Notes: generated by a model from the letters alone, not told the origin. 32,000 nt of DNA from an uncultured bacterium (GCA_963699255.1 OY969425.1:840001-872000); one strand, 5' to 3'; positions 19,341-31,108 are shown, counted from the first letter of the stretch. Made by a program: numbers and translations.

Positions 19341-19370
19341 AAAAAAGAGCGAGACGTCGTTGTCCCGCTC
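19341..19370 (-). terminator. Intrinsic terminator of glnA (copy 1)
   Basis: On the - strand, GAGCGGGAC/aacgac/GTCTCGCTC forms a 9-bp stem with one mismatch, followed by TTTTTT. It starts 12 nt after the glnA stop. Confidence 0.7.
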
Positions 19371-19381
19371 CCCCGAACTTT

Positions 19382-20707
19382 TTACAGTATCGGGAAATAT
19401 TTCTTTATTTCATACTCGGTGACTTGGATCCTGAATTCATCCCATTCTTTTTTCTTGACCGATATGAATCTTGAAAAACTGTGCTCCCCGAGAACCTCTC
19501 TCAACAGCTCGCTTCCCTCAGCTAATTTAATGGCGTCTCCAAGGCTTGCCGGAAGCGATTTTATGCCTCCCTCCTGTCTCTCCTCTTCAGTAAGATGATA
19601 CAGGTTTAGCTCCATCGGGTCGGGCAGCTTATATCCCTCTTCAATGCCCTTTAATCCCGCTGAAAGCATTACCGCAAATTGCAGATAAGGATTCCCGGAT
19701 GGATCCGGGCATCTTAGCTCCATGCGGGTAGCGACTTCCTTGCCCGGCAGGTACATCGGGACCCTGACGAGAGCCGATCTGTTGCGCCTTGACCACGCGA
19801 TATAGACGGGAGCTTCGTAGCCGGGGACCAGTCTTTTATATGAATTGACCCATGGGGCAAGTACCGAGATTATTTCCGGAGCGTGCTTTAATATCCCCGC
19901 AATATATGACTTGCCCACATCAGACAAATGATATTTGTCCTTCGCGTCAAAGAAAGCATTGGCCTTTCCTTTGAACAACGACTGATGGCAGTGCATTCCG
20001 CTTCCGTTCTGGCCGAACAATGGCTTTGGCATGAAGGACGCGTATACGCCGTTCTTTGATGCTATTTCCTTGACGGTCAATCTATAAGTGACGACATTGT
20101 CAGCCATCTTAAGCCCGTCGTCATATCTCATATCGATCTCATGTTGGGACGGAGCAACCTCATGATGGGAATATTCAACATTTATCCCCAGCTTCTTAAG
20201 GCACAGGACGGTCTCTCTTCTCAGATCGGAGGCCATATCAAGCGGGGTCAGGTCAAAATATCCGCCTTCATCCAGTATTTCGGGACTCTGACCGTTCTTG
20301 AAATAGAAATATTCAAGTTCCGGCCCGACATAATAATGGTCAAACCCCATCTTCTTCATCTTTGCAAGCGCCCTCTTCAGGACATACCTCGGATCCCCTT
20401 CATAAGGCTTTCCTCCCGGCTGAAGTATATCGCATATCATCCTGGCTACCGCTTTCTCCTGCGGCCTCCATGGAAGGATCTGAAATGTATCCGGATCCGG
20501 CATAGCTATCATGTCCGACTCCTCGATCGCCTGGAAACCGGTAATTGAAGATCCGTCAAACCCCATTCCCTCCGTAAGCGCTCCCTCTAATTCATCCTTC
20601 CCGATCGCGAAACTTTTCAATATCCCGTTAATATCCGTGAACCAAAGCCTTATGAACTCAACATCATTATCCTTTACCGCTTTAAGTATTTCCTCTTTTG
20701 TTGTCAT
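19382..20707 (-). CDS. glnA: Glutamine synthetase, type I (short GSI-alpha-like form, 441 aa)
   Basis: Motifs include FTDINGILKSF, GFDGSSITGF, HHEVAPSQHEID, NGSGMHCHQSL, APWVNSYKRLVPGYEAP and NRSALVRVP. Confidence 0.95.
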   Translation of the reverse strand: MTTKEEILKAVKDNDVEFIRLWFTDINGILKSFAIGKDELEGALTEGMGFDGSSITGFQAIEESDMIAMPDPDTFQILPWRPQEKAVARMICDILQPGGKPYEGDPRYVLKRALAKMKKMGFDHYYVGPELEYFYFKNGQSPEILDEGGYFDLTPLDMASDLRRETVLCLKKLGINVEYSHHEVAPSQHEIDMRYDDGLKMADNVVTYRLTVKEIASKNGVYASFMPKPLFGQNGSGMHCHQSLFKGKANAFFDAKDKYHLSDVGKSYIAGILKHAPEIISVLAPWVNSYKRLVPGYEAPVYIAWSRRNRSALVRVPMYLPGKEVATRMELRCPDPSGNPYLQFAVMLSAGLKGIEEGYKLPDPMELNLYHLTEEERQEGGIKSLPASLGDAIKLAEGSELLREVLGEHSFSRFISVKKKEWDEFRIQVTEYEIKKYFPIL

Positions 20708-24868: not shown

Positions 24869-26209
24869 CTATAATGTTTCTAGGTATTTGTCGATCTCCC
24901 ATGGCGTTATCTGCATCCTGTAGTCATCGAACTCCGCAGCCTTTGCCGCGACAAAATGTTCAAAAGCGTGCTTGCCAAGCGCCTGTTTCACAACCTCATC
25001 CTTTTTAAGCTCTTCCACGGCTCTGGCAATAGAAAAAGGAAGCATGTCTATCTTGTATTCGTTAAGTTTGGCCTGGTCGAATTCATAAACGTCCTCTTCC
25101 ACGGGTTTTGGAGGCTTCATTCCCCTCTTTATTCCATCAAGGCCGGCATAAAGCATCACGGCAAATGCAAGATAAGGATTGCAGGAAGGATCGGGGCATC
25201 TGAGTTCAAGCCTTGTTGACTGCTCCCTTCCCGGAGAGTATCTCGGTATCCTTATAAGCGCTGACCTGTTGATCTGCGCCCAGCAGATATATACAGGGGC
25301 TTCATATCCGGAAACAAGCCTTTTGTATGAGTTCACCGTAGGCGCGAGGATGGAAGTAAGAGCTTTTGCATGGAAAAGCTCCCCGGCCATGAAATTATAG
25401 GCGATCTCGGATAGTTTGTATTTATCTTTGGCGTCAAAGAAAGCGTTCTTTTCACCCTTGAACAAAGATTGATGGACGTGCATTCCGCTGCCGGCCTGTT
25501 TATAGAGCGGCTTCGGCATGAACGAAGCATACAGCCCGTGGTCCGAGGCAATGGACTTTATCACATACTTGAGCGTTATCGTATTATCGGCAGAAGAAAG
25601 CGCATCGGAATATTTGACGTCTATTTCGTGCTGGCCGGGACCGCATTCGTGGTGCGACATCTCCGGGACCATTCCCATCTTCTCCAGAGCAAAGATTATA
25701 TCTTCGCGCACGTCGCTGGCAAGGTCCTTCGCCGGATAATCAAAATAACCTCCGATATCGTGAGGGGTGGTCGTGATGCGCCCGTCGTCTTTTTTCATGA
25801 GATAGAACTCCACTTCAGGGCCTGTATAGAACGCGAATCCAAGTTTACCGGCTTCGGCGACCGCCCTTTTCAGTATCGATCTCGGGTCGCCTTCAAAAGG
25901 CTCACCTTCAGGCGTATGAACGTCGCATATGAAGCGGGCGGATTCCTTGCCCTCCACCTTCCACGGTATGATCTGGTAAGTATTCGGGTCAGGAACAAGG
26001 ATCATGTCAGATTCGCATATCCTGACAAATCCCTGTATGGAGGAGCCATCGAACCATATGCCCTTATCAAGGATGTCGGATAGCCTTTCCACGGGGACCG
26101 TCACGCTTTTGATCATTCCCAGAATATCGGTGAACTGAAGAAAAATGAATTTGATCTTGTCGGACTTTGCTTTTGCCAGAACTTCCTTGGCCAGTGCGGA
26201 TAACGCCAT
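24869..26209 (-). CDS. glnA: Glutamine synthetase, type I, second paralog (446 aa)
   Basis: It carries the same GSI motifs as copy 1 (WFDGSSIQGF, HHECGPGQHEID, AGSGMHVHQSL, APTVNSYKRLVSGYEAP, NRSALIRIP), with SD AAGGGAGG. Confidence 0.95.
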   Translation of the reverse strand: MALSALAKEVLAKAKSDKIKFIFLQFTDILGMIKSVTVPVERLSDILDKGIWFDGSSIQGFVRICESDMILVPDPNTYQIIPWKVEGKESARFICDVHTPEGEPFEGDPRSILKRAVAEAGKLGFAFYTGPEVEFYLMKKDDGRITTTPHDIGGYFDYPAKDLASDVREDIIFALEKMGMVPEMSHHECGPGQHEIDVKYSDALSSADNTITLKYVIKSIASDHGLYASFMPKPLYKQAGSGMHVHQSLFKGEKNAFFDAKDKYKLSEIAYNFMAGELFHAKALTSILAPTVNSYKRLVSGYEAPVYICWAQINRSALIRIPRYSPGREQSTRLELRCPDPSCNPYLAFAVMLYAGLDGIKRGMKPPKPVEEDVYEFDQAKLNEYKIDMLPFSIARAVEELKKDEVVKQALGKHAFEHFVAAKAAEFDDYRMQITPWEIDKYLETL

Positions 26210-26240
26210 ACTAACGCCTCCCTTTATTTTAGATGTTTTG

Positions 26241-26269
26241 ATTATATAATATGCTTAAATTTTAGGCAA
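26241..26269 (-). promoter_or_regulatory. Sigma-70 promoter of glnA copy 2, with motif A copy 3 embedded at 26252-26268
   Basis: The - strand reads TTGCCT, 17 nt, TATAAT. The palindrome TGCTTAAATTTTAGGCA (+ strand) covers the -35 element and most of the spacer. Confidence 0.65.
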
Positions 26270-26274
26270 TCGGA

Positions 26275-26310
26275 ATAAAAAACGGCGCCCCGGCATATTG
26301 TCGGGGCGCC
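26275..26310 (-). terminator. Intrinsic terminator of gdhA
   Basis: The - strand forms a perfect 9-bp GC stem, GGCGCCCCG/acaatatgc/CGGGGCGCC, followed by GTTTTTTATT. Confidence 0.85.
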
Positions 26311-26332
26311 GCATACTTACCTGGGACCTTTT

Positions 26333-27670
26333 CTACACTAAACCCTGGTCGAGCATTGCATCGGCAACTTTTATGAACCCGGCTATGTTCGCGCCGTCCA
26401 TGTAATTAATGAAGTCACCCTGTTTCCCCTGTTTGACGCAATTCTCATGGATATTGATCATTATCTCATGAAGTCTCTTGTCGACTTCTTCCCTGCCCCA
26501 GCTCAACCTCATGCTGTTCTGGCTCATCTCGAGCCCCGATGTCGCCACTCCTCCGGCATTCGCCGCTTTTGCCGGTCCGTAAAGGATCTTTGCCTTAAGG
26601 TAGACCTCGATCGCTTCCGGGGTTGACGGCATGTTCGCGCCTTCCGCAACGCACATGCATCCATTCTTAATGAGAGCTTCCGCATCGGCGCCGCTCACTT
26701 CGTTCTGCGTCGCGCACGGGAGAGCTATGTCGCATTCGATATGCCACGGCCTTTTCCCTTCCAGGAATTGGCATCCGTACTTATTGGCATATTCTTTTAT
26801 TCTGCCCCTCTTATTGTTCTTGAGATCCAGCACGTATGCCAGCTTTTCTTCGGTTATCCCATGCGGATCATGGACCGTTCCGTGCGAGTCTGATAATGTA
26901 ATGACCTTTGCCCCAAGCTGCATCGCCCTTTCAGCCGCATACTGAGCGACATTGCCGGAACCGGAGATCGTAACCGTTTTACCCTTGAACGACTGTTTCC
27001 TGGTCTTGAGCTGTTCTTCGGCAAAATAAACCAGGCCGTATCCGGTCGCTTCCGGCCTTATCAGGCTTCCGCCCCAGCCAAGCCCCTTTCCTGTCAGAAC
27101 GCCGGTAAATTCATTCCTCAGTCTCTTGTACTGGCCGTACATGAAACCTATTTCTCTTCCTCCAACGCCAATATCACCGGCCGGGACATCCGTGTCCGGA
27201 CCGATGTGCTTGGAAAGCTCCGTCATGAAGCTCTGCAAGAATCTCATTACTTCGTTATCCGACTTGCCCTTCGGGTCAAAATTGGATCCGCCTTTTCCTC
27301 CGCCCATCGGGAGCGTGGTCAGGCTGTTCTTGAAAACCTGCTCGAATCCCAGGAATTTCAACAGACCAAGATAAACCGTGGGATGCAAACGAAGTCCCCC
27401 TTTATATGGCCCTATGGCGCTGTTGAATTCCACCCTGTATCCTTTATTTACCTGTACTTCTCTGCTGTCATCCATCCACGGCACCCTGAACATTATCACT
27501 CTTTCCGGCTCCACTATCCTCTCGAGTATCTTTGCTTTTTCATATTTCGGGTTCTTTTCCAGGAACGGAAGAAGCGATTTCACTACTTCCTCTACAGCCT
27601 GATGGAACTCCGGCTCCCCAGGATTATCCGCAACTAACTTACTCATAAAAGCTTTTACTTTTGTCGCCAT
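26333..27670 (-). CDS. gdhA: Glutamate dehydrogenase (hexameric, NADP-type family)
   Basis: Motifs include KGGLRLHP, LPMGGGKGGS (catalytic Lys region) and the Rossmann motif GSGNVAQYAA. SD is AAAGGAGAG. Confidence 0.95.
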   Translation of the reverse strand: MATKVKAFMSKLVADNPGEPEFHQAVEEVVKSLLPFLEKNPKYEKAKILERIVEPERVIMFRVPWMDDSREVQVNKGYRVEFNSAIGPYKGGLRLHPTVYLGLLKFLGFEQVFKNSLTTLPMGGGKGGSNFDPKGKSDNEVMRFLQSFMTELSKHIGPDTDVPAGDIGVGGREIGFMYGQYKRLRNEFTGVLTGKGLGWGGSLIRPEATGYGLVYFAEEQLKTRKQSFKGKTVTISGSGNVAQYAAERAMQLGAKVITLSDSHGTVHDPHGITEEKLAYVLDLKNNKRGRIKEYANKYGCQFLEGKRPWHIECDIALPCATQNEVSGADAEALIKNGCMCVAEGANMPSTPEAIEVYLKAKILYGPAKAANAGGVATSGLEMSQNSMRLSWGREEVDKRLHEIMINIHENCVKQGKQGDFINYMDGANIAGFIKVADAMLDQGLV

Positions 27671-27690
27671 TTTTTCTCTCCTTTTCTGTC

Positions 27691-27746
27691 AATAAAAAAC
27701 GCCTCCGCTTAATCAAAACCTCATTGTCTTAATTAAACGTAAGGCG
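27691..27746 (-). terminator. Leader terminator (attenuator) inside the gdhA 5' UTR
   Basis: The - strand sequence CGCCTTACGTTTAATTAAGAC/AATGAG/GTTTTGATTAAGCGGAGGCG forms about 19 bp with two single-nt bulges, followed by TTTTTTATT. It ends 20 nt before the gdhA ATG, and I see no promoter between it and the ATG. Confidence 0.7.
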
Positions 27747-27782
27747 CCGTTGCCCGACATTTATTTGATCTATACAGTAGAT

Positions 27783-27811
27783 ATTTTATTAAAACCGGGG
27801 ATGATTGTCAA
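27783..27811 (-). promoter_or_regulatory. Sigma-70 promoter of gdhA
   Basis: The - strand reads TTGACA, 17 nt, TAAAAT. The predicted TSS is near 27776, giving a leader of about 105 nt. Confidence 0.65.
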
Positions 27812-27818
27812 ATAATAT

Positions 27819-28580
27819 TTATTGCGGGTTTGCTTCCTGCGCGGATATCAGCTCTTCGGCGATCTCTTTCATGGATTTTCTGCTGTCCATGCTCTGTTTT
27901 TGCAGCTTCCTGTAAGCCTCTTCCTCAGACAGCCCTTCACTTTTCATGATCATGCCCTTTGCTTTCTCGGTCAGCTTTCTTTCCTCCAGCCTTACGGCGA
28001 GCATTTCCTTCTCTTCTGCAAGCTTCCTGTTCGATATCGCTATCGCCGCCTGATTCGCGACCGCGGAAACAAGCCTGATCTCGCCGGCGGTGAACTTGTG
28101 CGGCCTGGAAGTGTAGCTGTTCAATACCCCAATAGCCTTTCCTTTCACGATGAGAGGGACCGCAAGCATTGAACAGAGTTTTTCTTTTTTTGCTATCTCC
28201 GGGAACATGTAATCCGGTTCCTTTTTTACGTCAAGCACCGTTATCGGCTTTTTTTTGCTGACCGCCTTCCCGCTGATCGACTGGCCGACCTTTACATTCG
28301 GCTTGTCTGTGTAACTATCGCTTAAGCTCTGCGTGGCGGCAAGCCGGAGCTCTTTCTCGTTTTCACTTAGCAACATCAGGGAGCATATCTTGGAGCCCAT
28401 GACCTCAGCCGTCATCGCGACAATTATCTTCAGGATATCATCAAGGTACATGTCCGAAACGATGGCGGTGCTTACCTTGCCAAGAGTTTCAATTTCTTTT
28501 TGGAGCGATCGGGATGATTTTGTCATTGATATATTTCCTAAATTTTCCCTGACGATAGATTGGCTGGGAACTCGAGTCAT
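27819..28580 (-). CDS. GAF-ANTAR RNA-binding antiterminator-type regulator
   Basis: The GAF region is LDDILKIIVAMTAEVMGSKICSLMLL...GKAIGVLNSY. The C-terminal ANTAR domain is ERKLTEKAKGMIMKSEGLSEEEAYRKLQKQSMDSRKSMKEIAEELI. ATG 28526 (SD AGGAAA) is an alternative start. Confidence 0.85.
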   Translation of the reverse strand: MTRVPSQSIVRENLGNISMTKSSRSLQKEIETLGKVSTAIVSDMYLDDILKIIVAMTAEVMGSKICSLMLLSENEKELRLAATQSLSDSYTDKPNVKVGQSISGKAVSKKKPITVLDVKKEPDYMFPEIAKKEKLCSMLAVPLIVKGKAIGVLNSYTSRPHKFTAGEIRLVSAVANQAAIAISNRKLAEEKEMLAVRLEERKLTEKAKGMIMKSEGLSEEEAYRKLQKQSMDSRKSMKEIAEELISAQEANPQ

Positions 28581-28598
28581 CTTCGAACTTTCTCGATA

Positions 28599-28627
28599 AT
28601 TCTACCTAATACTATCCACGGGAGCAA
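28599..28627 (-). promoter_or_regulatory. Sigma-70 promoter of the GAF-ANTAR gene
   Basis: The - strand reads TTGCTC, 17 nt, TAGAAT. Confidence 0.5.
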
Positions 28628-28640
28628 GAAGCACTTATGA

Positions 28641-28684
28641 CTACCGATACTGTGACTTAGCCGGGGAGTTTCACAGTATCCCTC
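28641..28684. repeat. Inverted pair of the 19-bp CGGnTAnTTCACAGTATC site (left cluster)
   Basis: GATACTGTGA (28646-28655) and TCACAGTATC (28671-28680) are perfect 10-bp inverted repeats 15 bp apart, centred on CCGG. The flanks match the right-hand copies. Confidence 0.7.
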
Positions 28685-28694
28685 TATATACGAT

Positions 28695-28747
28695 ACGCGT
28701 ACACAGGCACGTACGCACGAGCGCAGGCGCGCGGCCAAGCGCGCACT
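28695..28747. other. GC-rich tract of about 53 bp with almost continuous purine-pyrimidine alternation
   Basis: Alternating runs are ACGCGTACACA, CACGTACGCACG, GCGCA, GCGCGCG and GCGCGCAC. The tract includes the hairpin GCGCGC/ggccaa/GCGCGC (28727-28744) and abuts an AT-rich stretch (28750-28815). Confidence 0.5.
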
Positions 28748-29324
28748 AGGTATTTATTAATTAATATAATACGTATTCATTTGTACAGTTGATTGATAGC
28801 TGTTGTTCATTAGCATTAGAGAAAGACAAAGGATCAATGACTTTGGATATGAACACGAACAGAAGACAGAAGAACCTGACCCAAAGAGTTGAAGACACGC
28901 TGAGAGCTTGAAGTTATTGCTGTTCACACAGCCAAAGAAGCTTTCGGGATCCTCGAAAAGAAGAAGCTCATTGTCCCGCTACGCTGGACGGGACAAGCTG
29001 TCCGTCACAAAGATTGTTCGACTCGTGGCTCTTGAGGAACGTTCCCTGCCACGATGGGCCCGCCAAAGGCCAAGGCAGGCGAAGCTGGTCTGTCTGCTTA
29101 ATCTGAGCGTTTCCAGAGCGGAATGAAGGCATTCCTTGAGCCTCCTCAAGTGATTGCTCATTGTATTTCTGTGTTGCTTTTTCCATGGTTCCGCCAAAGG
29201 AGAATGACCAACTACCAATGAACAATGCCCCCGCCTTCGCCGAGGCTTCCGCCAGAGGCGGACAAGTCGACAGGCAGGTAATTAAGGTGTGCTACGCACA
29301 TTCAAAGGAGAAAGACCATAACTC

Positions 29325-29453
29325 CTGCTCCGCCTCCGGCGGTATTTGACTTTGTGTCATGCCGCCCGCCAATGCCCGCCAAAGAAAAGAACCAAAGCTA
29401 CTGCTCCGCCTTCGGCGGTATTTGTCTTCGTGTTGTGCCGCGCCGCCCGCCAA
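29325..29453 (+). repeat. Two direct repeats of about 50 bp, each starting with a small GC hairpin
   Basis: Copy A (29325-29372) is CTGCTCCGCCTCCGGCGGTATTTGACTTTGTGTCATGCCGCCCGCCAA. Copy B (29401-29453) is CTGCTCCGCCTTCGGCGGTATTTGTCTTCGTGTTGTGCCGCGCCGCCCGCCAA. Each has a CCGCC/GGCGG hairpin followed by TATTTG. Confidence 0.7.
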
Positions 29454-29541
29454 ACCACTCCCAAAATGATTGGGGAAAGAATCCGCAAAACCAAGCATGA
29501 AAAATGAGCAAAAACTGATGAAATCCTGAGGCCAAAAACAA

Positions 29542-29602
29542 GCGGTTACTTCACAGTATCCTACCGGGTATTCCACAGTATCGAGCGGTTAGTTCACAGT
29601 AA
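29542..29602 (+). repeat. Three phased direct copies of the 19-bp site (right cluster), abutting the promoter of 29639-31108
   Basis: The copies are GCGGTTACTTCACAGTATC (29542-29560), CGGGTATTCCACAGTATC (29565-29582) and GCGGTTAGTTCACAGTAAG (29584-29602). The CACAGTA cores start at 29552, 29574 and 29595, a spacing of 22 and 21 bp. Confidence 0.75.
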
Positions 29603-29603
29603 G

Positions 29604-29632
29604 TTGACTTTTTAAGCCCCAAGGGTGATAAT
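29604..29632 (+). promoter_or_regulatory. Sigma-70 promoter predicting a leaderless mRNA for 29639-31108
   Basis: TTGACT (29604-29609), 17 nt, then GATAAT (29627-32). The seventh nt after the -10 element is the A of ATG 29639, and there is no SD. Confidence 0.55.
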
Positions 29633-29638
29633 TCCCCC

Positions 29639-31108
29639 ATGATTGAAGAGCTTGAATACTTAACTTTGAATGAAATGAAAGCTTTACTCAATTCCATCGA
29701 CGACACCCGCGACCGGGCAATTATTGCTCTATTTCTTAATACGGGCCTCTTCTTGAACGAGGTAACCTCCCTGAAAGTCGACTCAATCGACTGGAAGAAA
29801 AAGTCACTTTCCGTCCCCGGCAACAGGAAAAGAACTATCCCACTGAATGACCAGGTTTTTGAGGCGCTTGCCAAGTGGTCGAAAGAGCGTCCGTCGGGCA
29901 AGATTCCCGATCTTTTTGTCACCACAAAAGGAGAGCTGAAAGACCTCAGCAGCCGCGGCGTCGATTATCTGATAAGAAAGTACGCTGAACAGGCTGGCAT
30001 AAAGAAACGGGTTAATCCGCAGATACTTCGCAATACATTTGCGGTCCGGTTATTCTCAGAAGAACCCTCCGTGGAAAAAGCTTCTGCCATTCTGGGTATA
30101 TCCGATCCGGAATCGGTAAATCGCTATATACAGGCCTCCAAGCGACCGCCGGCCAAGGTCGAGATAACTGAAAAGCTTGAGCATATCGATACCCGCCATC
30201 CTCTTGTTAAAGCCGTTTCCAAGATGTTCCCTACTAAGCCGAAAATCGTTAAGCCAACGACCGCAATAAAAGGCGCTATTACCCCAAGCCCCGAAGAAGT
30301 GATTTTCGGCAGAGAGAATATAATCAGCGATATAAAAGCTGATATCGGCAAAAGCCAGTCTGTTCTATTGACAGGTCCTTTGGGGATAGGCAAAACACAT
30401 CTATTGAAGCACATGTCCAAAGCGTTGGGGCCTAATACATTATATATCTCTTCTCCCACTCCGCTAAAGATTGTCCTTACGCAAATTCTCAACAAGCTTG
30501 ATCCTGCATGGCAGGAGCAATTAAATACAAGAGCTTCAACGAAAGAGATAGCCGATTACATCGTGAAAATAAAGGGCGCAAAGCCCCCTATCCTGATAAT
30601 CGACAATTTGAACAACATAAAAATATCGGATATCGACCCTATCTTGACCTTACTGGATAACTTCCCCATACTTGCCGCGGCTGACGAGACAAAACCGAAG
30701 CTCAAACAGGTCTGGTGGAAGTTCAAGGAGATCGAGCTTCCGCCGTTAAAAGAGGATTCCTCGAAGGAGCTTATCAAATACCTGACGCAGAACCTAACTA
30801 TCAGCGATTATGAAATGCTTGAAACAAGGATATTGACCCTGTCAAACGGCCTTCCCCTTGCAATCGTTGACATGATCCATCAGATAAGCCATATCCCGAT
30901 GGTTTCAAAAGATGTTATTCGTGATGTTTACCACGAAGCCGGAATACATTATCGCGACTGGACAACCGTTATAATTTTCATTTACTGGATAGCTGTCATT
31001 TTCAGGTTCGTCGCGCTTGGCACAAAAAGTTATGAGGCCTATTTTCTCGCCGGTTTCGGCGTGACTCTTTTGATGATCTTAAGAAATGTTATGTCGATGT
31101 TGAAATAA
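29639..31108 (+). CDS. Fusion protein: degenerate tyrosine-recombinase-like domain, then a STAND/NB-ARC-like P-loop NTPase, then two C-terminal TM helices
   Basis: The N-terminal about 165 aa follow the integrase catalytic-domain pattern, but TGLFLNEV replaces TGLRxSE, QILRNTFA replaces HxLRHTFA and LGISD replaces LGH; the RYIQ Tyr is kept. The middle region has FGRE...LLTGPLGIGKTHLL, ILIIDNLN, FPILAAAD, IELPPL and NGLPLAI. The C-terminus is WTTVIIFIYWIAVIFRFVALG...FLAGFGVTLLMIL. Confidence 0.65.
   Translation: MIEELEYLTLNEMKALLNSIDDTRDRAIIALFLNTGLFLNEVTSLKVDSIDWKKKSLSVPGNRKRTIPLNDQVFEALAKWSKERPSGKIPDLFVTTKGELKDLSSRGVDYLIRKYAEQAGIKKRVNPQILRNTFAVRLFSEEPSVEKASAILGISDPESVNRYIQASKRPPAKVEITEKLEHIDTRHPLVKAVSKMFPTKPKIVKPTTAIKGAITPSPEEVIFGRENIISDIKADIGKSQSVLLTGPLGIGKTHLLKHMSKALGPNTLYISSPTPLKIVLTQILNKLDPAWQEQLNTRASTKEIADYIVKIKGAKPPILIIDNLNNIKISDIDPILTLLDNFPILAAADETKPKLKQVWWKFKEIELPPLKEDSSKELIKYLTQNLTISDYEMLETRILTLSNGLPLAIVDMIHQISHIPMVSKDVIRDVYHEAGIHYRDWTTVIIFIYWIAVIFRFVALGTKSYEAYFLAGFGVTLLMILRNVMSMLK

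Follow-up and report, generated by a model that had tools for sequence, protein, structure and literature searches.

ANTAR proteins bind RNA at dual hexaloops that carry A at position 1 and G at position 4 (A1/G4), and act on terminators, mostly of nitrogen genes (PMC3369931, PMC8934654). In the model given in the literature, the second hexaloop hairpin (P2) overlaps the terminator and the first one (P1) is free (PMC3369931, PMC8934654). Here, a 32,000-nucleotide (nt) stretch of DNA from an uncultured bacterium (GCA_963699255.1, OY969425.1:840001-872000, called the window) was analysed around a GAF-ANTAR regulator gene and the glutamate dehydrogenase gene gdhA that follows it. Judged from the sequence and its relatives, the leader between the two genes is probably an ANTAR-type, protein-operated transcription attenuator controlling gdhA, in which the regulator would bind the leader RNA and act in the direction of antitermination.

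Several described systems come close to this arrangement. The EutV-controlled eutP, eutG, eutS and eutA leaders of Enterococcus faecalis (PMC3369931, PMC8934654) likewise combine an ANTAR output with two A1/G4 hexaloop hairpins, one of which cannot coexist with the intrinsic terminator of the 5' leader. However, EutV is a REC-ANTAR protein with a phosphorylated receiver, whereas the protein in the window has a one-component GAF sensor and gdhA as its putative target. In addition, P1 is free and P2 overlaps the terminator in eut (PMC8934654), whereas in the window leader it is the first hairpin that is in competition with the terminator base, and the terminator apex provides the second hexaloop. 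The nas and ami systems also have a free upstream hairpin and a downstream hairpin overlapping the terminator, an order that is reversed in the window leader. The NasR/nasF leader of Klebsiella oxytoca (PMC3369931) is likewise served by a one-component sensor-ANTAR protein, with antitermination of a nitrogen-assimilation operon, but NasR senses nitrate/nitrite through a NIT domain, while here the sensor is a GAF domain and both the target gene and the hairpin layout are others. The predicted nitrogen regulons of Ramesh et al. 2012 (for example those of Desulfotomaculum and Pelobacter) share the ANTAR motif and terminator before glutamate-forming or ammonium-assimilation genes. They differ from the present case in the host, here a member of Candidatus Margulisiibacteriota, in the apparent one-leader regulon, and in the second loop lying on the terminator apex. 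What is particular to the window locus is its phylum, this one-leader regulon and the proposed nested layout, the textbook one being found in a sister clade.

An earlier note on this DNA had called a GAF-ANTAR control of glutamate dehydrogenase an undescribed nitrogen circuit. This is overstated, since a 2012 study had already predicted ANTAR motifs ahead of genes for nitrogen assimilation, those for glutamate synthase among them (PMC3369931). As for the architecture, no characterised GAF-ANTAR protein appears in that paper or in the ANTAR protein table of a 2025 review, which has only AmiR, NasR, EutV and Rv1626, and a literature search combining GAF-ANTAR with glutamate dehydrogenase brought up no relevant work.

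Regulator, promoter and leader fold

All features of the leader switch lie on the minus strand, with a spacer of 148 nt between the regulator stop codon and gdhA. They are, in the order of transcription:

27819..28580, minus strand: GAF-ANTAR regulator gene, an open reading frame of 253 amino acids with a probable start at 28526; Pfam matches to GAF_2 and ANTAR
27783..27811, minus strand: sigma-70-type promoter, with -35 box TTGACA (27811..27806), 17-nt spacer and -10 box TAAAAT (27788..27783)
27768..27782, minus strand: small hairpin AUCUA-CUGUA-UAGAU adjoining the -10 box, from the leader fold
27742..27755, minus strand: candidate anti-terminator hairpin, here called Px, GGGC[AACGGC]GCCU, with a 4-base-pair (bp) stem and an A1/G4 hexaloop
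27698..27748, minus strand: intrinsic terminator hairpin, from the leader fold and the pairing in the alignment
27720..27725, minus strand: terminator apex hexaloop AAUGAG, closed by C-G; proposed second ANTAR loop
27694..27699, minus strand: U6 tract of the terminator, read from the sequence; U5-U6 throughout the close relatives (group 1, below)
27681..27678, minus strand: Shine-Dalgarno (SD) sequence GGAG of gdhA, read from the sequence
26333..27670, minus strand: gdhA, glutamate dehydrogenase of 445 amino acids; Pfam matches to ELFV_dehydrog and ELFV_dehydrog_N

The regulator matches Pfam GAF_2 over residues 46-182 (E 1.8e-20, 74 bits) and ANTAR over residues 194-245 (E 9.6e-20, 70.6 bits against a cut-off of 27.3). 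It thus has the C-terminal ANTAR domain above the curated threshold, with a sensor domain before it, by which ANTAR regulators are classed (PF03861). Sequence matches show that its ANTAR part resembles the solved Rv1626, NasR and AmiR and the response-regulator entry 6wsh, and that the nearest solved GAF domains are those of a Geobacter protein, PtsP (EI-Ntr) and the NifA-like Nlh1. GAF domains of the PtsP/Nlh1 type report 2-oxoglutarate or glutamine status. By analogy, the signal of the regulator is plausibly a nitrogen-status metabolite, possibly one of these two.

The TTGACA-17-TAAAAT sequence scored 11 out of 12 and ranked first among the promoter-like sites of a 3.5-kb scan, with its -35 box starting 8 nt past the ANTAR stop codon. 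Nearly all of the 14 distinct leaders of relatives have a TTGACA or TTGACT box and a TAAAAT/TATAAT-like box in this position, with differing spacer sequences between them, which on sequence grounds is the footprint of a real promoter. Since this conserved promoter lies upstream of the terminator, gdhA transcripts that start from it must traverse the terminator. The TTGACA found directly 3' of the U-tract was considered as a second promoter and rejected, as it has no -10 partner and is not conserved.

Folding of the 123-nt leader gave -33.1 kcal/mol (z = -4.6), and none of 200 dinucleotide shuffles was as stable. The terminator hairpin has 20 Watson-Crick or G-U pairs plus two G-U pairs reaching into the U-tract (22 in total), with one bulged A. 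It consists of an 8-bp G+C-rich base, in which GGCGCCUU is paired with GGAGGCGUU, and a 14-bp A/U-rich upper stem (27739..27706), and the end of the U6 tract is 23 nt from the gdhA ATG. The G+C-rich base directly before a U-tract that marks an intrinsic terminator is present as CGCC/GGCG followed by U6, so that termination is predicted from the sequence. A simple terminator scanner missed this hairpin, its loop and stem rules having chosen a smaller one.

Only 2 nt (UA) upstream of the upper stem lies Px, whose 4-bp stem is closed by C-G and whose hexaloop AACGGC has A1 and G4. The GGC of its loop and the GCCU(U) of its 3' arm double as the 5' strand of the terminator base. Since these bases (GGCGCCU) are shared, Px and the full terminator are mutually exclusive. 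The calculated energies are -27.5 kcal/mol for the terminator state, -23.0 kcal/mol for the state with Px forced and -4.4 kcal/mol for Px alone. With Px formed, the residual 14-bp A/U-rich hairpin ends 6-8 nt before the U-tract and, on this model, should not be able to terminate. The leader therefore has two stem-loops with A1/G4 hexaloops, the second being ...GAC[AAUGAG]GUU... at the terminator apex, and both are kept in ten relatives.

The GAF-ANTAR gene directly upstream of gdhA, the promoter before the terminator, the terminator with its U-tract, the passage of gdhA transcripts through it, and the AAUGAG apex loop with A1 and G4 had all been described in the earlier note, and each of them was found as described. 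Its sole descriptive error was to find no second hexaloop hairpin, as Px stands at 27755..27742.

Conservation of the leader and proposed mechanism

In the proposed mechanism, the default outcome would be a start at the conserved promoter and formation of the 22-pair hairpin with U6, so that the RNA would end after about 83 nt. With the GAF domain active, the ANTAR domains, presumably as a dimer, would bind two C[AANGNN]G hexaloops, the first being that of Px and the second the AAUGAG apex of the terminator upper stem. Px, held folded in this way, would withhold GGCGCCU from the 8-bp terminator base, and with the residual upper hairpin too far from the U-tract, RNA polymerase would continue into gdhA.

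The gene order was examined in relatives of the regulator. An orthologue was found in 23 of the 146 genomes searched in the phylum, and gdhA is the gene after it in 8 of the first 15 orthologues of this genome collection. The genes downstream on the same strand are gdhA (8 loci), an archaeal-type glutamate synthase (7), an NfnA/GltD-like pair (4) and a few unrelated ones. A single-protein search of genome contigs gave three loci, one of them useful (L032), which adds a locus with a nirB-like gene downstream. From these annotations, the common theme of the downstream genes is glutamate formation and ammonium assimilation. Close homologues of the regulator number more than 1,600 in metagenomes, and in all 12 of those that were traced (67-93% identity) the regulator gene is followed by a spacer of about 100-185 nt and then by gdhA.

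Leaders close to that of the window form group 1, which comprises the window itself and L043, L045, L047, L049, L051/L081, L056, L106, L177 and L178, with regulators 76-93% identical. In this group, Px is kept as RGGC[AAYGGC or AAAGGC]GCCU in 10 out of 10 leaders. The pairs of the terminator are formed in 96.4% of the alignment cells across the ten, compared with 32-50% when the partners are slid, and compensatory changes are seen in two pairs. The apex loop appears as AAUGAG, GAUGUA, AAUGAA, AAUGGA, AAAGAA, AAUGGU and AAUGUA. All ten leaders have A at position 2 and G at position 4. At position 1, nine have A and one has G; position 3 is split between U (eight) and A (two), and positions 5 and 6 are free to vary. 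The closing C-G pair is invariant, several other stem positions differ between leaders, and the pair two steps below the closing one is mismatched in seven of the ten. Such a constraint at the positions read by ANTAR domains would be hard to explain unless a protein reads the terminator apex, and the balance of the evidence leans, by a little, towards the apex loop being the second ANTAR site.

A sister group of four loci (group 2: L004, L052, L053 and L055), with regulators 67-70% identical, has the textbook layout, that is, an upstream hairpin followed by a second hairpin overlapping the terminator. Its 5'-end hairpin is AUC[AGAGUCR]GAU in three of the four loci, with A1 and G4 in a 7-nt loop, and CC[GAGGUC]GG in L004. 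The loop and 3' arm of the second hairpin, UAGAC[AAAGGC]GUCUA, make the 5' strand of the terminator, whose apex is UUUU-like and not ANTAR-like. Group 1 shows the opposite combination, with no conserved upstream hairpin and with the apex hexaloop present. Since the two patterns are complementary, the partner loop would lie either upstream (group 2) or at the terminator apex (group 1). The canonical rule that the 3' hairpin overlaps the terminator and the 5' one does not is followed in the sister group and in L032, and is not followed in the window. The loop-to-loop distance of 20 nt is inside the 13-25 nt of six other orthologous leaders.

These patterns raise the question of a nested rewiring in this lineage, for and against which the case is evenly balanced. 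The regulator would clamp the 5' hairpin and the terminator apex; the apex site, present in both the ON and the OFF fold, could pre-load the protein, and the 4-bp hairpin would decide the outcome. If this variant is true, the roles of the hexaloops are split into recruitment and structure switching; why both loops are needed was left open by Walshe et al. 2022, and the nested group beside its textbook sister clade offers a natural experiment on that need. For annotation, searches that demand an overlap of the second hairpin with the terminator would miss real targets. The earlier note had suggested that the mechanism might differ from the two-hairpin model. The layout does depart from it, but the device is still one of two-hairpin mutual exclusion and is not different in kind.

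Several points weigh against the proposed attenuator and its apex site. When Px is forced in RNAfold, AAAUGUC (27759-27765), a sequence upstream of Px that is partly conserved, pairs with GGCGUUU (27699-27705) and forms a weak three-way junction by the U-tract. Px itself is nearly invariant, three of its four pairs never varying, so it has no support from covariation. The group-1 leaders are 87% identical on average, and the conservation of the apex loop could partly reflect shared ancestry. The linker between Px and the upper stem is 2 nt, compared with the 5-12 nt that work for EutV in E. faecalis (PMC3369931). In addition, several more distant orthologous leaders have hairpins but no recognisable terminator, and the output mechanism may not be uniform across the phylum.

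The alternative that survives best, although it is unlikely, is a canonical layout with a degenerate partner, in which Px is P2, its partner is the small hairpin at 27782..27768 or none at all, and the apex loop is irrelevant. It agrees with the sister group and L032, where, of two hairpins, the second one overlaps the terminator. The small hairpin, read as AUCU[ACUGUAU]AGAU, carries A1 and G4 in a loop of 7 nt and resembles the sister-group P1 in its AUC/GAU ends, and ANTAR sites with a single hexaloop have been proposed (PMC8934654). However, this hairpin abuts the -10 box and would be truncated by a start at the conserved promoter, 5-9 nt past that box, and it is absent from L045 and from L043, whose regulator is 93% identical. 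It was therefore rejected as P1 and is probably not part of the switch. Moreover, it is unusual for a terminator loop that positions 1, 2 and 4 and the closing pair are kept in all ten leaders (position 1 as A or G) while positions 5 and 6 vary, and the sister-group terminators that do have a P1 lack such an apex loop.

A metagenome scan with the pattern GGCAANGGCGCC-N30-50-GGCGTTTTT was meant to test the apex loop without bias. Among the matches listed, most were unrelated sequences, and two were new members of the group (L081 and L106), both with the order regulator, leader, gdhA. Also among the matches listed, L066, L072, L073, L075, L089, L100, L102, L114, L117, L121, L124, L134 and L135 have GGC[AANGGC]GCC running into a long near-perfect terminator. 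These contigs are unrelated to the window and their apex loops are not ANTAR-like; the units are probably canonical ANTAR P2/terminator pairs of other bacteria.

Occurrence of the hexaloop motif

The frequency of the motif was compared with 1000 dinucleotide shuffles. In the 22 orthologous leaders (2,190 nt), 18 C[AANGNN]G hairpins of at least 3 bp were found, compared with a shuffle mean of 0.31 and a maximum of 3, an enrichment that is partly circular and to that extent speaks less for the proposed attenuator, as the closing C-G and A2 were derived from the same leaders and only A1/G4 comes from the literature. Two such hairpins were present in 5 of the 22 leaders, against a shuffle mean of 0.003.

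The whole genome, counted on both strands, has 624 single hairpins of this kind and only three pairs within 20 nt, which is about the number expected by chance. Two of the three dual motifs are inside open reading frames, and the third is the one in the spacer beside the sole ANTAR gene of the genome. The regulon thus appears, on this count, to be a single leader. GAF-ANTAR is among the commonest ANTAR architectures. With a single regulator, a single leader of about 85 nt and a single target gene, the locus is a minimal test system that could serve in the search for the GAF ligand by which uncultured bacteria with small genomes would sense their nitrogen status.

Presence of the motif was also followed across the class, where gdhA is 72-88% identical to that of the window in regulator-bearing genomes and 62-67% in the others (loci L180-L208). 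The gdhA leaders of 19 genomes of the class without ANTAR genes had no dual motif and only two chance single ones, one of them being the SD sequence. Dual motifs were found in ANTAR-encoding genomes, including two (G035, L182 and G010, L184) in which the regulator is present and adjoins an nfnA/gltD-like pair, with gdhA unlinked. Here two hexaloop hairpins, GUAAC[AAUGCU or GAUGCU]GUUAU and UAUGC[GAUGCC]GCAUA, lie in the 80 nt upstream of gdhA. The second of them stops a few bases before the SD sequence and a terminator is not evident, which hints at translational rather than transcriptional control in these two genomes.

With these data the possibility was considered, and found very unlikely, that the hairpin is an unregulated terminator which ends the regulator transcript and constitutively dampens gdhA, the hexaloops being incidental. 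Between the ANTAR stop codon and the hairpin no other terminator is present, so that this hairpin also stops read-through from the regulator gene, and the three dual motifs in the genome are about what 624 single hairpins would give by chance. However, it is hard to see why a conserved promoter would be placed just before a strong terminator if read-through were not regulated, and the probability that a dual motif lands by chance in the 148-nt spacer is around 1e-4, as estimated from the genome counts. In addition, the loops are conserved, and the motif tracks the ANTAR gene across genomes even where gdhA is unlinked.

A protein-free RNA switch in cis, either a metabolite riboswitch or leader-peptide attenuation, can practically be dismissed, since, for all that the leader has two mutually exclusive structures and the AUG in AAAUGUC opens a 15-codon frame through the hairpin, no Rfam match was found with E up to 10 and the RNA, a plain hairpin with a 14-nt stem-loop beside it, has no junction or pocket. 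The leader peptide from that AUG was rejected, as it has no SD sequence and the AUG is missing in L049, L051 and L106. The Rfam search covered positions 26000-30000 and gave no relevant family, only weak chance matches to sR58 and sX6.

The gating of gdhA by the GAF-ANTAR protein, proposed in the earlier note, is therefore strongly backed at the level of sequence by synteny, by conservation of the hexaloops and by co-occurrence of the motif with the ANTAR gene, and the protein-operated attenuator is kept as the probable reading.

Genomic setting and further observations

The window is part of a single-contig genome of 1.77 Mb, with one ANTAR-domain gene. The host phylum is Candidatus Margulisiibacteriota according to the source names in a protein cluster: the 90%-identity cluster of the 441-amino-acid glutamine synthetase encoded at 19382..20707 has two members named Candidatus Margulisiibacteriota / Margulisbacteria. 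A cluster of nitrogen-assimilation genes, among them gltB, two copies of glnA, amtB and the gene of a GAF sigma-54 activator, ends with the regulator-gdhA pair. The gdhA product matched ELFV_dehydrog with E 1.3e-93 and ELFV_dehydrog_N with E 1.2e-49.

The translated part of the regulator gene is probably shorter than the full open reading frame of 253 amino acids. Close relatives have 230-237 amino acids, mostly 235, and their alignment begins at M19 of the window frame, the ATG at 28526, which has AGGA 8-13 nt upstream. Since the close relatives align from M19, the true start is probably at 28526, giving a protein of 235 amino acids and leaving the first 18 codons (28526-28580) untranslated.

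The nearest regulator in the genome collection (L003, G003:C10:5549-6277; 73% identity) is interrupted by two in-frame TAA stops, and gdhA was not found in its genome, which is 80% complete. Within the family, three genomes are without both regulator and gdhA. Joint decay of regulator and target may explain L003, in a set where the genomes lacking the two genes or having a broken regulator are only 70-86% complete.

A search of the genome for other regulated leaders gave a single suggestive case, a terminator with one hexaloop after glnA. At 19343-19374 on the minus strand, 8 nt past the glnA stop codon, GGGGGAGCGGGAC[AACGAC]GUCUCGCUCUUUU followed by UUUGG forms a 13-bp terminator that lies ahead of the fis-like/gltB unit; its apex, too, is a hexaloop closed by C-G and carrying A1, A2 and G4. 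A hairpin competing with this terminator was not seen. The ANTAR protein might act on it as on that of gdhA, or the resemblance could be a product of chance.

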